A stretch of DNA of 64,000 nt from Octopus vulgaris (lineage: Eukaryota), in assembly GCA_951406725.2 (NCBI GenBank), contig OX597817.1, positions 25,978,001 to 26,042,000 of the forward strand, written 5' to 3'. The notes under the pieces are model-generated. The model searched no databases, had not been told where the DNA came from, and saw only the letters and a program-made list of their open reading frames with translations. This document shows positions 2,967 to 20,254 of this stretch, piece after piece. Position 1 is the first letter of the stretch, and every line of letters starts with the position of its first letter. A program made the translations under genes and the position numbers.

Positions 2967-3705
2967 TTGGGTTGGCAACTAAGTTCCTGCCGGTTTTTTT
3001 TTTTAAATTAAAATTTTTTAAAAGGTTTAATAAAAAATAACAACTAATTAATCAATAATGTATTCATCCTTGTTGTTTACTACTTCTTCCCAACGTTCAA
3101 CAAGATTTTCAATACCTCGTTAGTAGAAATCACCTGATTTCGACTCAAAAACTTGATCCAACCAAGATCTCAATTCTGTGACAGTATTGAAAGAAACTCT
3201 GCACAGAGCATCTGAAAGAGATTGAAAAAGGTAGAAATCCCTTGGTGCCAAATCAGGAGAGTACAGCTGGTGTGGCAGCACTTCCCAGCCATGCATATGA
3301 ATAGCTTCCTTGGTCATATTGGCGATATGAGGGTGGGCGTTGTCGTGCAGCAGAAGAACCTCATGTTGCCAATTAGGTCTTTTCTCTGGAATAACCATGT
3401 TGAGTCGTTCCATATGCTGAACATAGAATTCCACGTTGACCGTTTGGTTCCATTTAAGCAATTCATAATGGATAATCCCTTCTCAGTCCCACCATGCACA
3501 ATATCGCTTTACGTAGATGAAGATCTTGTTTCACGTGCGGTGTTGCTTGTTTACCAGGGCTAAGCTATTCTTACACTGTAGAGGCACTATTTTTCGTTGC
3601 CAGTAACAATTCAGTAAAGAAATCGTTGCTTGTGTCCATGAATTGAGCATTGACGAGCAAGAAAACTAGCAGAGATTGTGGCTCGTCGATTTTTGTTGCT
3701 AGAAT
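2967..3705 (-). mobile_element. Mariner (Tc1/mariner, D,D34D) transposon, 5'-truncated
   Basis: TA followed by TIR TTGGGTTGGCAACTAAGT at 2967; transposase remnant on minus strand; second TIR absent. Confidence 0.9.
3048..3700 (-). pseudogene. Mariner transposase pseudogene, C-terminal catalytic half
   Basis: IVTGNEK* (decayed TGDEKW), then HDNAHPH with 34 residues to the last D of YSPDLAPRDFYLF, then FY*RGIENLVERWEEVVNNKDEYIID*. Premature stops and frameshifts present. Confidence 0.9.
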
Positions 3706-4348
3706 AAGAATAAGGAGCAACCTTCACCACTACTTACTCAGTTGCCTAAGTAACAGAAACTGTGTACTACTTCTAAAGATATAAACATAAACTCTCACAC
3801 ATACATATAGTTACAGGCACATATTTAGAAATTTGTCTTGTTAGAGCTACTGTATTCTAGTTTCCTAAATAATGAAGCAATTTTCATGTAAATTTAGATC
3901 CACAGTATTAAAGACAAGTGAGGAACTGACTGAAAATATCAAGAACAAATATCTTAAACATTTCACATTTTGACATGATAGGCTTATCGTGACACTCTCG
4001 AATGATAATTGAACAATACTTGTCATACACACACACAAGCATTAACTGGATTTAAATAGATTTCTTTGTAAAAATCAGCAATTTTAATACGGTGAAATAA
4101 TGGAGCATATACAATATATCGTTTATATTCTTCTTGTGTCATTTTTTGAAGTATGGTCATGCTGGGGCACAACCTTGAAGGATTTAGTTGAACAAATAGA
4201 CCTGTGTACTTATTTTAGTCAAATCTGGTACTTATTCTATCAGAATATTTTATAATTATTTTATAATTTACATAGGTATGCCGGTTCAGGCTTTCTGCTT
4301 GAATCTCAGTTGTGTGGCTTCAGCTCTTTGCAATATGCTAGTAATGTA

Positions 4349-4611
4349 AAATGATAATAAATGCACCCTTTTAAAGCCTCGCCAGGCTCATGGGCCCGGT
4401 TTCTCGGTTTCAATGGCGTATATGTTCCCCATCTGGACAGGACGCCAGTCCATCGCAGCGTTACTCATTTTTGCCTGCTGAGTGGACTGGAGCGATGTGA
4501 AATGAAGTGTTTTGCTCAAGAACACAACGCATCGCCCGGTCCAGGAATCGAAACCACAATCTTACAATCATGATGCTGACACCCTAACCACTGAGCCATG
4601 CGCCTCCATCA
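4349..4611 (-). mobile_element. tRNA-headed SINE family D
   Basis: A box TGGCTCAGTGG and B box GGTTTCGATTCC; 11-bp TSD CTAGTAATGTA (4338-4348, 4612-4622); homologous to copies at 26246 and 55623. Confidence 0.85.
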
Positions 4612-4877
4612 CTAGTAATGTAGTAGCTGAGATATAGGTTAATGGTTTCGTAGGTTGTTTTTATACCTCTGGAGTGTGTGGTCTTCAGATGTTTGTGTGC
4701 TATTTTGTTTACTACCTCTGATTCTAATTTACTAGGCTCTTTACTTCTACTGATGTTCTATGGCCTGTCATTCAAATTAAGGTTGTGGACATGTTGAAAC
4801 ATATCATCTCAGGTCACTTGTAAAGCATCTACAAGGTTTTGGTGTTCTTCTGTTTGTACAGTAAAGGTATGGATTTC

Positions 4878-5205
4878 AGTGGCCACCATGCCGATGGCAT
4901 GTAAAAAACACCATTCAAGCGTGATTGTTGCACGAGGTCGTTGCCAGTGCCGCTGGACTGGCTCCTGTGCAGGTGGCACATGAAAAGCATCATTTGAGTG
5001 TGGCCGTTGCAAGTACCACGTGCGTGGCCCTCGTGCTGGTGGCACGTAAAAGCACCCACTACACTCTCAGAGTGGTTGGCATTAGGAAGGGCATCCAGCT
5101 GTAGAAACTCTGCCAGATCAGATTGGAGCCTGGTGTTGCCATCTGGTTCACCAGACCTCAGTCAAATCGTCCACCCCATGCCAGCATGGAAAGTGGACGT
5201 TAAAC

Positions 5206-5237
<32 letters not shown>
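4878..5237 (+). mobile_element. RTE LINE 3'-end copy (family B), 3 internal repeat units
   Basis: GTGGCACGTAAAAGCACC-type units, TGGCATTAGGAAGGGCATCCAGCTGTAGAAAC block, GGACGTTAAAC(GAT)n tail. Confidence 0.8.
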
Positions 5238-5238
<1 letters not shown>

Positions 5239-5752
5239 ATTGGTGTGTTTTTACTGCAAGCACTGACTGCTCTGTCTGTCCCTCATTGGATGTTGTATGA
5301 TTACTTTCAACATCTGGCTTTACAGTGCAACCTTGCTTTGAATCAGACAATTTCATTAGGTGTATCAATTTACATTTAAGGATTTACATTTGCTCGTTCA
5401 TTTAAATGTTTTAAGGAAAAATATAATTCTAGATGTTTGGAGTTCCACAACTATTCTAATCTTTTTCTTAAAACAGAACTTTCGATAGTCAGATTGTATA
5501 TATTCCTTGTATAAATCTTTGTCAAGATCATTGGTCCATTGTATACAGTGATTGTAGTTATTGATTTACTTGAAGGAAACTTATAACTTTAGCCCTGATA
5601 ATTTTGTCGTTTCACAAATATTTATATTTGTTTTTCAAAATAAACAATGATCTTACAGTTTTATATTTAAGAGATGAGAAATTATGCACATTATTTACAT
5701 TATTTATTTTATTTACATTTGACTGATATTTATCCTCATCTTGTTTGTTATT

Positions 5753-5798
5753 AACACAATGTTTTGGCTGATATACCCTGCAGCCCTCTTCAGGTTTC
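5753..5798 (-). ncRNA. Minimal type I hammerhead motif, decayed
   Basis: Minus strand gaaac CTGAAGA gggctg..cagcc AAAA ca tt gtgtt; GAAA changed to AAAA. Confidence 0.55.
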
Positions 5799-5852
5799 TT
5801 GGGAAAATTTCGAACCTTTGGAATGAGAAGCCAGGTTCGAAATTTCCCCCAA

Positions 5853-5898
5853 GACACCTGATGAAGGCTGGAGGGTATATCAGCTGAAATGTTGAGTT
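5853..5898 (+). ncRNA. Minimal type I hammerhead ribozyme motif, Penelope-type
   Basis: gacac CTGATGA a ggctg-gagggtatat-cagct GAAA tg tt gagtt; intact core boxes and helix II, with point changes in helices I and III. Confidence 0.7.
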
Positions 5899-5995
5899 AA
5901 CAACAAACAAGATGAGAATGTAAATAATATCAATAATGTAAATATCTTTAAAAGTTTCAATAAAGTTTTGTTAGAATTAAATTTGTGTGTGTGTG

Positions 5996-6065
5996 TACAT
6001 ATACATACATACATACATACATACATACATACATACATACATACATACATACATACATACATACA

Positions 6066-16607: not shown

Positions 16608-17017
16608 TTCTTTCTTTTACTTGTTTCAGTCATTTGACTGCGGCCATGCTGGAGCACCGCCTTTAATCGAGCAACTCGACCCCGGAACTTATTCTTTTGT
16701 AAGCCCAGTACTTATTCTATCGGTCTCTTTTGCCGAACCGCTAAGTGACGGGGACGTAAACACACCAGCATCGATTGTCAAGCAATGCTAGTGGGACAAA
16801 CACACACACACATACACACACACGCATATATATATATATATATATACATATATACGACGGGCTTCTTTCAGTTTCCATCTACCAAATCCACTCACAAGGC
16901 TTTGGTCGGCCCGGAGCTATAGTAGAAGACACTTGCCCAAGGTGCGACACAGTGGGACTGAACCCGGAACTATGTGGCTGGTAAGCAAGCTACTTACCAC
17001 ACAGCCACTCCTGCGCC
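16608..17017 (-). mobile_element. SINE family A, full length
   Basis: All family A blocks present. Confidence 0.9.
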
Positions 17018-17315
17018 TGTCTTGTTTTATTGCAGAACCTTATGCATTTTCTTGTTGGATATTTCTCCTCAGTAATGAGAATGGCTACAAGATACCCAGA
17101 TGCAAACCTAGTAAAATTAAGGGATGTTGAGTGTCTTCCAGCATTTGGATGTGGAATATGTGGAGGGTACTAGGTAATTGCTTACTTAATCAATTAGGTC
17201 AATAATGCAAACAGATTCTGCATTCCTGATGTCTTTGTCTTCTTGGCATTATCATTAGCTGGCAGAGATATTTTATAAAGGATGCATGAATTCTATTGTG
17301 CATACTTCATCATAT

Positions 17316-17724
17316 AGGCGCAGGAGTGGCTTTGTGGTAAGTAGTTTGCTTACCAACCACATGGCTCTGGGTTCAGTCCCACTGCATGGCACCGTGGGCA
17401 GGTGTCTTTTACTATAGCCTCGGGCCAACCAAAGCCTTGTGAGTGGATTTGGTAGACGGAAACTGAAAGAAGCCTGTAGTATGTGTATATATGTGTGTAT
17501 ATGTGTATGTGTGTGTGTATGTGTGTGTATGTTTGTCCCCCCAGCATTGCTTGACGACCAATGCTGGTGTGTTTACATCCCTGTAACTTAGTGGTTTGGC
17601 AAAAGAGACCGATAGAATAAGTACTAGGCTTACAAAGAGTAAGTCCTGGGGTTGATTTGCTCGACTAAAGGTGGTGCTTCAGCATGGTCGCAGTCAAATG
17701 ACTGAAACAAGTAAAAGAAAAAAG
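17316..17724 (+). mobile_element. SINE family A, full length
   Basis: All family A blocks present. Confidence 0.9.
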
Positions 17725-18499
17725 CATATGATAGGTCATATAGAACTTTCTTCTCCTTTTCTAGGTATTGGGTTGGGTAATCACCAAGATGCTGATTGAC
17801 CTTTTTATTGTGAGTTGTAGTTGTAAATAGCCTCTGATATCTTTCACAAGTATAAAAGAAACCTCTAGTGAAATATTAAAAGAACATTAGATAAACCCCT
17901 AATGATATTCAAGGATAGACTCAGTGAAGATCAGTTGCTACAAACTCAATCACAGTCCAACTTCCTGCCATAAAGTGATGACAAAACTAATAGAAATTAA
18001 GTTAAGATGGTGCACCAGTATGACCACAGTCTTTTGATTGAAACCATTTAAAGAGTAAAAGAGAGTGAACTGTAGACACTTTTTTAAACTTTCCATTTTA
18101 GGACCCAAACTTTTCCTATCTAAGAGCCACAATTTTCATCCCTTTTCAGCTTTTCTTTTGTCTGTCTTTCTTTTCTGTTTTGGTTAATATCGTCATACAC
18201 ATCAGTATAATTCTGGATAAGTATATCAGTTAGTCGTAGACTAGTGTAAAATTATCACTATTGAGATAGTAGACTTGTGGCAGCAAAGATTTAATGTGTG
18301 TCATAATTACTGGAAAGTATATTGGAAAGTCACAAAATTTCTCTAGGTTTGTCTATTTTCCTACATATATAACAACTTCCAAAGCACACCTTGATTCAGA
18401 TTCATGGAACATGAAATCAATTGCAGCATGGAAGGTGTTTATAAGCCATTTAAGAAACACACGAAAACTGTTAGATTCACTTCAACATTTAAATTTAAT

Positions 18500-18548
18500 T
18501 TGTCAAAATATTTTCGTCACTTTGAGACTGAGACCTGTTCACTGACAA
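18500..18548 (-). ncRNA. Hammerhead-like motif, G3:C8 core variant
   Basis: Minus strand ttgtca GTGAACA g GTCtC-agtctcaaa-GTGAC GAAA atat t t tgacaa. Confidence 0.55.
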
Positions 18549-18569
18549 AATTCCATGCTGCACAGAATT

Positions 18570-18618
18570 TTGTCAGTGAACAGGTCGCAGTCTCAAAATG
18601 ATGAAAATATTTTGACAA
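18570..18618 (+). ncRNA. Hammerhead-like motif, G3:C8 core variant
   Basis: ttgtca GTGAACA g GTCGC-agtctcaaa-ATGAT GAAA atat t t tgacaa; 6-bp helix I, palindromic helix III, weakened helix II. Confidence 0.5.
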
Positions 18619-20254
18619 ATTAAATTTAAATGTTGAAGTGAATCTAACAGTTTTTGTGTGTTTCTTAAATGGCTTATAAACACCTTCTGCGCTGTAATTG
18701 ATTTCGTTCCAGCACATGATCTCAAAACAGATCACTTGCTATGCAAGTACATCTCCGGAACATGAAATATTTTACCCCAAATTTACTGCGTTTGAGAGGA
18801 ATCTATTAAACACACCAATCTTATCATTATACAATATAAGGCTTTTGTTAACACTAACATTCCTTTTTTGAAGTCTATGGACTGTGGAAATTTTGCTAGC
18901 AAATGAGAGTATTTCATATATGATATTTAGTTTGGCATGGAGATGGGGAATGAATATACTGCTTAATTTTTCTATACTCGTTGTGTGACATCGTTTTTCT
19001 AAAACCAAAGTAACTGAAACATAGTATACTTTGACCAATGGATATCTTCTTCCTTCTGATAAACTGACTAGGCTTTAAAGCATTTTCAGTGGAAAAATAA
19101 AAATAAAAATACAATTCAGCAGGTGTGACAGGTGTCTAATTACATGCTGGATTTTGTCCAGCAAATCTGTCTATTTACCTGCAAACTGAATCAATCAAAG
19201 TTTTATGAAACACCCATGATAAGAATTCAAGGAGAGCCATTGCAATGATGTTGCCATCAATCTTTATTCTTGGTGTTGCTGTGCATGGAAACCTTGGAAG
19301 AAGATGAGAGTTGTCTTCAGCAGATAAGTTAATATGACTCTGTTGCTTACTGCTATTGGAATTCTCCATATCAGTGTCACATCAGCAGAGAAGGCATTGC
19401 TCACTGAAGATATGTCATCATTAGAGTTTTCTACCATGGCAAAAGATATTTCATTCACTGGATACTTATCTTTGTTATTTTGTCAAACAAAACAACGAAC
19501 AACAAATCCAGAGAACGAGTTATATAATCGTGTCTGCTCTCCCTTCAAGGGCTGAGTAGAAACTGATTAGGAGCTCCATCCGTGCCCATCACTCTTGGCT
19601 ACCAAATATACAAGGTTCATGAAAGAAACAACTCATTTATGTGTCAGAGTGAGCCAGCAAGGTTGAAAAACCAAATGATATCACATTATCTCTCCATTTT
19701 TGTAACATATATACTTTTACAAGATATCATACCTTTCCCCACCAAAATTCGACTACCTTAAAATAACCATCGGAAAAGTTTAAGGTGAATACTTCATTGC
19801 TGTATCTTTATAAGGGAAGATTCTGAAGTACTAAACGAAAGTGGCCTAGTTTGTATCCCTATGAACAAATCCAATCATCGGAGCAGTGAGTGCAAGGGAA
19901 GTATGTGTAAAGAAATAAATAAACTAAAGAATGAAAAATAAATATAAAATAAAATAAAAGATGTTCACATTATGTATCCACTTCCATCTGATGCACCAAC
20001 TGACTTCATTTAGGGTTGATAATAACAGTGAATTTTTTTTTTTTTTTAATGTAGGATATGAATAATTGGTTAAATAAGTATATAAATAAGAAAATTATGA
20101 AATGAAATAGAAACAAATTAACACTTTATACAATAACCTGAAATGTTAACATCGTCATCACCATTGTCATCATCAGCATCATTATCATTTCATATAGCTT
20201 AGTAATTTTATGTAACGTTTATATTGTTAATGGTCTTTGATAATAACAACAGCA

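Follow-up and report, generated by a model that had tools for sequence, protein, structure and literature searches.

The feature analysed here is a decayed head-to-head pair of short retrocopies derived from the pLTR end of a Penelope-like retrotransposon (PLE), whose family motif, in its intact form, belongs to the minimal type-I hammerheads, has G3:C8 as a derived core pair and is predicted still to self-cleave slowly. We place the probability of this reading as a whole at roughly three in four. The feature lies within a 64,000-nucleotide stretch of Octopus vulgaris DNA, referred to here as the window. That the wider family, designated A, is a hammerhead homolog with a fixed G3:C8 core is close to certain. 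Hammerhead positions follow the standard numbering scheme. Textbooks treat C3-G8 as the mark of hammerhead activity, and laboratories routinely use its reversal as a rescue control. The 2'-OH of residue 8 acts as the general acid.

The window copy, reported as a fold-back in an earlier note on this DNA, comprises two inverted arms of 146 nt each (18413-18558 and 18560-18705) with 93% complementarity, and the right arm extends about 60 nt further than the left at its outer end. The 12-bp direct repeat also reported there is an exact 12-nt match (Table 1), although the true duplication is 8-12 bp long since 4-5 nt at both ends are shared with element-like sequence. Rereading both arms recovers in each the order UUUGUCA, GUGAACA, an extra G, a 5-bp helix II, GAAA, the AUAUU of the proposed mini helix III, U17 and UGACAAA towards the outer end. 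Helix I, previously given as 6 bp, spans 7 bp (UUUGUCA/UGACAAA). The ancestral helix II proposed earlier, GUCGC/GYGAC, agrees with the family state of GUCGC/GCGAC but is damaged in both window arms. The right arm reads GUCGC/AUGAU, with two wobbles, one mismatch and C11.1U, and the left arm has a single U-U mismatch.

Table 1. Coordinates of the fold-back and its component features within the window.
Feature	Position	Strand	Details
Left target-site duplication	18406..18417	+	Boundary blurred by microhomology with the left arm 3' end; junction comparison
Left arm (short retrocopy that begins close to the inferred start site and stops at the short 3' end, around ORF codon 10)	18418..18558	-	
Left-arm hammerhead motif	18499..18549	-	Core GUGAACA 18542-18536; predicted cut between 18506 and 18505
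Right arm (retrocopy that begins close to the start site and stops at the long 3' end, codon 30)	18560..18756	+	With ~60-nt tail
Right-arm hammerhead motif	18569..18619	+	Helix I 18569-75/18613-19; predicted cut after 18612
Right-arm core GUGAACA	18576-82	+	Extra G 18583; helix II 18584-88/18598-602 (decayed)
Right-arm GAAA	18603-06	+	AUAUU-U17 18607-12
Parent PLE ORF, first 30 codons	18669..18758	+	Two stops in window copy; frame continues into RT/GIY-YIG in L273 and L254
Right target-site duplication	18757..18768	+	First 4 nt shared with the family 3' end

The window copy is a decayed member of an older subfamily and, with helix II decayed and the motif buried in a 146-bp hairpin, is a dead fossil. 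When the arms are folded whole, helices I and II form in neither (pair probabilities of at most 0.02), and the helix I probability is 0 in the fold of the entire fold-back. Isolated window motifs of 49-61 nt have ordinary stability (z 0.0 to 0.3) and the first 75 nt of an intact parent reach z -1.4, with 26 of 300 shuffles equally stable, so folding energy alone provides no evidence. The intact leader adopts the hammerhead shape in a 300-nt context, with probabilities of 1.0 for helix II and 0.7-1.0 for helix I. At the family level the motif carries the minimal type-I set (U4, G5, A6, A9, G12, A13, A14, A15.1-U16.1 and H17), with G3/C8 in family A in place of C3/G8. Helices I-III with compensatory changes, G10.1-C11.1 and the extra nucleotide after position 9 are likewise present in the family, and incomplete as a set in the window right arm. 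The Rfam hammerhead search gives 0 hits on the window at gathering score; for two intact loci at E<=1, the best 150 of 170 rows include no hammerhead. Standard models thus miss this core, in keeping with the earlier expectation for CUGANGA-based searches. A second large inverted pair in the window (16608-17723) is built from a different repeat, which we take to be an octopus SINE.

The genome searched covers 2.8 Gb in 227 contigs, and a protein assigned to Octopus vulgaris by NCBI matches it at 100% across residues 8-803. A DNA search there with the arm yielded 3,222 candidates, 40 of them scored. A core pattern with positions 3, 7 and 8 free has 5,988 genome matches compared with 1 for its reversed control, and duplications of at least 10 nt flank 11 of 30 loci compared with 4 of 870 cross-locus controls. 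Together these exclude chance at the family level. G3:C8 is found in 93 of the 100 core-pattern matches listed, the remaining 7 being single changes (counted by eye). A pattern for the 3' part that is blind to the core has 6,477 matches and 0 in its control. From the 100 of these that were listed, 90 loci gave 86 distinct arms, among which the core is readable in 44 and is G3:C8 in 42. Four subfamilies, diverging from their own consensus by 7.8, 2.9, 2.3 and 1.3% (151 arms), vary in loop II (5 of 9 positions) and in the leader or ORF (six positions), with helix and core positions invariant, about 14 of the latter being forced by the search regex. Family-wide conservation of GUGAACA and GAAA, which the earlier note had put forward for checking, thus holds. 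Double changes at 3 and 8 within family A are mostly non-complementary and occur in more decayed copies, and no C3-G8 copy with a family-A loop was present among 58 matches. Contigs of presumed-RNA runs contain the arm in three organisms. The rows listed include no core variant at 5% or above, and contigs of this kind are blind to ends and strand.

The fold-back was traced to its parent through an inverted arm pair 2.5 kb apart, which encloses a GIY-YIG reading frame. At 29 of 30 loci picked by the endonuclease protein, the arm lies in sense 0.9-1.2 kb past the stop codon, bearing out both the Penelope-type origin and the linked RT/GIY-YIG ORF that the earlier note had proposed looking for. 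Cores are readable at 28 of these 30 loci and all 28 are GUGAACA. Locus L215 holds a 1025-aa open frame (2971-6045, minus) with a C-terminal GIY-YIG domain (PF01541, residues 880-970, 25.6 bits against a cut-off of 22.6). Pfam RVT_1 gives no score on this ORF, and the RT call comes from motifs read by eye and from homologs, of which there are 154, including two named RT-domain proteins. The first 30 residues of the ORF are encoded in the final 90 nt of the arm; a public protein opens with these residues and from there matches the L215 frame at 84% identity. L273 is a partial tandem consisting of a truncated pLTR, the ORF (one stop, one frameshift), a UTR and a pLTR with tail. The core lies directly upstream of the ORF in L254, as does the window's own subfamily in L255. 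Given the shared 30-residue ORF start, the L273 tandem and the order in L255, the arm represents the pLTR end, together with the tail, of an autonomous PLE. The mobile family with a non-canonical core inferred in the earlier note is thus not a separate small one.

The parent order is an ORF encoding RT and, at its C-terminus, GIY-YIG, then about 1 kb of 3' UTR rich in microsatellites, followed by the hammerhead, a leader of 56 nt and the start of the ORF. Each arm contains the inferred start site, the hammerhead motif, the 56-nt leader and the first 10 or 30 ORF codons. The RT/GIY-YIG ORF, partial tandems giving pLTRs (L273, L275 and sister family C), inverted 5'-truncated copies and an optional tail are features of an EN+ PLE. 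Endonuclease regions of 13 copies are 99.7-100% identical, which indicates that the G3:C8 lineage was copied recently. Two other candidate parents were rejected. The top GIY-YIG matches belong to Neptune-like families with no relation to the arm (a single incidental arm in 30 loci), and a same-strand arm pair 3.45 kb apart is a local duplication without an ORF.

The parent also decides against a MITE or fold-back DNA transposon whose hammerhead-like sequence arose by chance, a reading to which the long inverted repeat and flanking duplication would otherwise lend themselves. Since an RT/GIY-YIG element has the arm as its end, this is ruled out and retains a negligible probability. Moreover, 41 of the 86 arms have no inverted partner (45 have one), arm lengths vary, and so do the duplications, from 10 to 14 nt.

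Arm 3' ends fall at two sites, short in 44 of 86 and long in 42 of 86, about 30 and 90 nt into the ORF respectively. At the other end, 33 of 86 arms begin at 0 to +4, about 20 nt upstream of helix I, and none of the 86 begins at +60 to +62, the predicted cut being at +61. Reverse transcriptases can copy a cap as G. Among 29 short copies that start at +1, 19 have G as the preceding base, a position occupied by C in the parent (p ~2e-8 at 18% G), and we read this G as a copied cap, some instances also fitting the inverted partner or the duplication. With no ends at the cut and a G read as cap, the short copies appear to come from uncut RNA, and we hold that the retrocopy ends are not products of cleavage. 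An alternative to cap copying would be splicing onto an acceptor-like site at +2. L273 (7296-7325) has branch-point-like and splice-acceptor-like sequence ending at +2, at the inferred leader start, after the microsatellite-filled 3' UTR, and this sequence has 445 exact genome matches. An intron in the pLTR or 5' UTR is a further trait of EN+ PLEs; no spliced junction was seen in contigs.

These ends also bear on whether the arm might be a non-LTR retrozyme or a SINE-like non-autonomous unit replicating via circular RNA. The unit is short (~210 nt), very abundant and hammerhead-bearing, and a pLTR origin has been proposed for retrozymes (bioRxiv 10.64898/2026.07.22.740005). However, it is collinear with the parent leader and ORF start, and its ends are the inferred start and two intra-ORF sites rather than the cut. 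The head-to-tail junction has 0 matches, a weak argument because the pattern was strict. The retrozyme reading is largely refuted and we consider it very improbable.

For the PLE retrocopy pair that we favour, an anole PLE offers a template, in which nicking of both target strands is followed by extension from internal start sites (PMC11167929). By analogy, a capped octopus transcript would begin at the inferred start about 20 nt upstream of helix I, the element protein would nick both target strands 8-14 nt apart and reverse transcription would be primed internally at the two 3' sites. Two cDNAs reaching the cap could then join head to head via the central TGCA, which would give the inverted repeat, the one-sided tail and the surrounding duplication.

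G3:C8 is the derived state of a true hammerhead homolog, since the hammerheads found in the same position in the sister PLE and outgroups have compensated helices and carry C3-G8 or U3-A8. Family C shares 55% amino acid identity with A in RT and endonuclease and is its sister with support of 99/99, in a tree comprising unnamed relatives and one Neptune-like element of the octopus genome. It is full length and carries a hammerhead in the corresponding position, with C3-G8, with C9 and with compensation in the pairs of each of the three helices (29 of 30 loci). Among relatives from metagenomes (30-51% identity), L366, L372 and L368 have C3-G8 and L367 has U3-A8, all of them with the extra G. The hammerhead is readable in four of the nine metagenome loci (three by script, L368 by eye), is unclear in L369, and four loci end before the 3' region. 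The older family B has the same helices and is 59% identical to A across 113 nt downstream, and U17 is found in families B and C also. The 3:8 pair is Watson-Crick-capable as G:C in family A and as C:G and U:A in homologous families.

The helix covariation anticipated earlier is evident across related families. In an alignment of nine family representatives, in which L366 is misaligned in helix I, both sides change in 10 of 11 pairs and 92% of cells are paired, a share matched by 0 of 500 shuffles and compared with 25-50% in slid controls. The 9/9 Watson-Crick score at 3:8 in this alignment is partly by choice, as three family-B rows were picked with a Watson-Crick 3:8. In a further search, 73 of the 100 matches listed (of 210) are non-family-A (counted by eye). 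Their 3:8 pairs are 9 C:G, 10 U:A, 32 U.G, 14 C.A, 6 A.G and 2 other, so that 19 of the 73 are Watson-Crick and 22 mismatched. Non-Watson-Crick cores at 3:8 seem to outnumber what decay alone would explain. A complementary double change at 3:8 can also arise by drift, 3 of 9 double changes being Watson-Crick. Family B (L081-L110), a set of older sister subfamilies, has many U3.G8 and C3.A8 cores, and this suggests that its source elements had an imperfect 3:8 pair.

Such cores raise the question of whether the family A motif is instead a hammerhead descendant with no useful cleavage rate, its fold kept as a structural element of the 5' leader for protein binding or translation control and G3:C8 tolerated as drift. 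The absence of 5' ends at the cut (0/86), the relatives with U.G, C.A, A9C and U15.1-A16.1 cores, and an anole PLE in which cleavage is dispensable for in vitro insertion and no reads end at the site (PMC11167929) are all consistent with this. Retention of G5, A6, G12-A14, U16.1 and a cleavable N17 is harder to reconcile with it. Furthermore, six families (A, C, L366, L367, L368 and L372; young or single ORF-linked copies) all have a Watson-Crick 3:8 pair, in three identities, and this pair matters to the active conformation, not to secondary structure. We therefore regard a purely structural role as unlikely, if far from negligible. The missing ends and odd cores do not single out G3:C8, because the anole PLE, with a canonical core, shows the same lack of ends, and its cleavage is protein-dependent and dispensable in vitro (PMC11167929).

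We favour a catalytic hammerhead, and the intact family A motif is predicted, on balance, to show measurable site-specific cleavage, which is likely to be slow. In published studies, a C3G/G8C double mutant partly rescues a protein-requiring PLE hammerhead (PMC11167929), a swapped 3:8 pair likewise gives partial rescue (PMC8495972), and G3-C8 has higher activity when residue 17 is G rather than C (PMC3884650; data not shown there). G3:C8 would thus retain the tertiary Watson-Crick pair that positions the 2'-OH of residue 8 (PMC11167929, PMC8495972), and U17 would avert the G3-C17 ground-state trap suggested by PMC3884650. As the AAUAUU duplex alone is worth only -0.2 kcal/mol, cleavage would need a dimer through this palindrome or help from the element protein. 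The likeliest use of cleavage would be to cut tandem read-through RNA to unit length for re-ligation; that it is needed in vivo is doubtful.

A natural G3:C8 core appears to be unreported, whereas PLE hammerheads, tails and inverted copies are already known. A survey by Lunse and colleagues reportedly contains many PLE-linked hammerhead variants and is where an earlier case would most likely appear. In the literature searched, which did not extend to this main PLE-hammerhead survey (Lunse et al. 2017) or to subscription-only work on the 3:8 pair, G3:C8 hammerheads were only engineered ones and no octopus hammerhead was found. Natural U3-A8 hammerheads have been reported (PMC3088659, PMC4209133), and the available text on natural core variants also describes compensatory 3:8 change in nature, with U3-A8 the sole natural covariant named (Perreault et al. 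2011, PMC3088659). Known PLE pLTR hammerheads share with the octopus family the pLTR position, an extra nucleotide between 9 and 10.1, G10.1-C11.1, a palindromic mini helix III, a U-rich 5' flank and copies that are mostly solitary or on opposite strands. They differ in having C3-G8 (sole natural variant U3-A8, in Schistosoma) and H as the extra nucleotide of the consensus; the octopus family has G there and a helix I of 7 bp.

A close likeness is also seen to Poseidon PAc of Anolis (Frangieh et al. 2024, PMC11167929), where the hammerhead also adjoins the ORF start, two internal 3' ends define a tail, targets are AT-rich and no ends lie at the cut site. The engineered C3G/G8C double mutant of PAc is the natural core of the octopus family. 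In octopus the hammerhead lies 56 nt before the ATG and the 3' ends fall near +30 and +90, with a tail of about 60 nt, compared with 3' ends from +111 in PAc; unlike PAc, the octopus parent possesses a CxxC linker, and its RT motifs A and B are spaced much further apart. Nematis/Neptune-type PLEs with a C-terminal endonuclease (Craig et al. 2021, PMC8557442) share the C-terminal GIY-YIG with CCHH, partial tandems, inverted 5' copies and (TA)n targets. The octopus CX2-5CxxC linker has short spacing like the Nematis rows in Fig. S2 of that paper (by eye). The octopus parent differs in having DKS for DKG and in the stretch from RT motif A to motif B, which spans about 128 residues compared with about 65 in the canonical rows (PMC8557442).

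Our results describe a natural family fixed for G3:C8, traced by protein phylogeny to C3-G8 relatives and still copying. Surveys based on CUGANGA miss thousands of motifs in this one genome and, if our reading is true, some PLEs reported to lack hammerheads may carry swapped cores. The family also offers a ready experiment on what core change genomic hammerheads tolerate, and on whether PLE hammerheads are selected for cleavage. We tentatively propose, at slightly less than even odds, that the octopus PLE carries the first natural and, as predicted, catalytically working G3:C8 hammerhead. It would have been reached by a double transversion past an inactive intermediate at the general-acid residue, in a U17 background free of the G3-C17 trap. 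The clade would then form a mutational series of C3-G8, U3-A8, G3-C8, A9C and U15.1-A16.1, and CUGANGA descriptors would undercount PLE ribozymes.

Several observations on these loci stand apart from the main argument. Family C (L223-L252; L227 = G000:C5:115840523-115845895) is very young, with a 1309-aa ORF and copies that are 99% identical, and A9C is present in 29 of 30 loci of this youngest, intact sister family. C9 also occurs in the metagenome relative L367, together with U3-A8. In L368 (4965-5019) U15.1-A16.1 replaces A-U and the palindrome is UAGCUA. At L020 (1501-1701), A>G and T>C variants at 5-25% occur in contigs of three presumed-RNA runs and are nearly absent from one other run. 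This excess is possibly A-to-I editing of the double-stranded RNA of the fold-back, but the organisms differ and a same-organism DNA comparison was uninformative. L215 and the homologs compared with it have some 60 more residues between RT motifs A and B than canonical PLEs (~128), and the extra residues sit at the position of the insertion-in-fingers domain. In the Neptune-like PLEs (L111:906-4587, L038, L040, L041, L044, L049 and L055) an upstream ORF overlaps a 781-aa RT/GIY-YIG frame, and one subfamily has a U3-A8 hammerhead about 500 nt past the stop.
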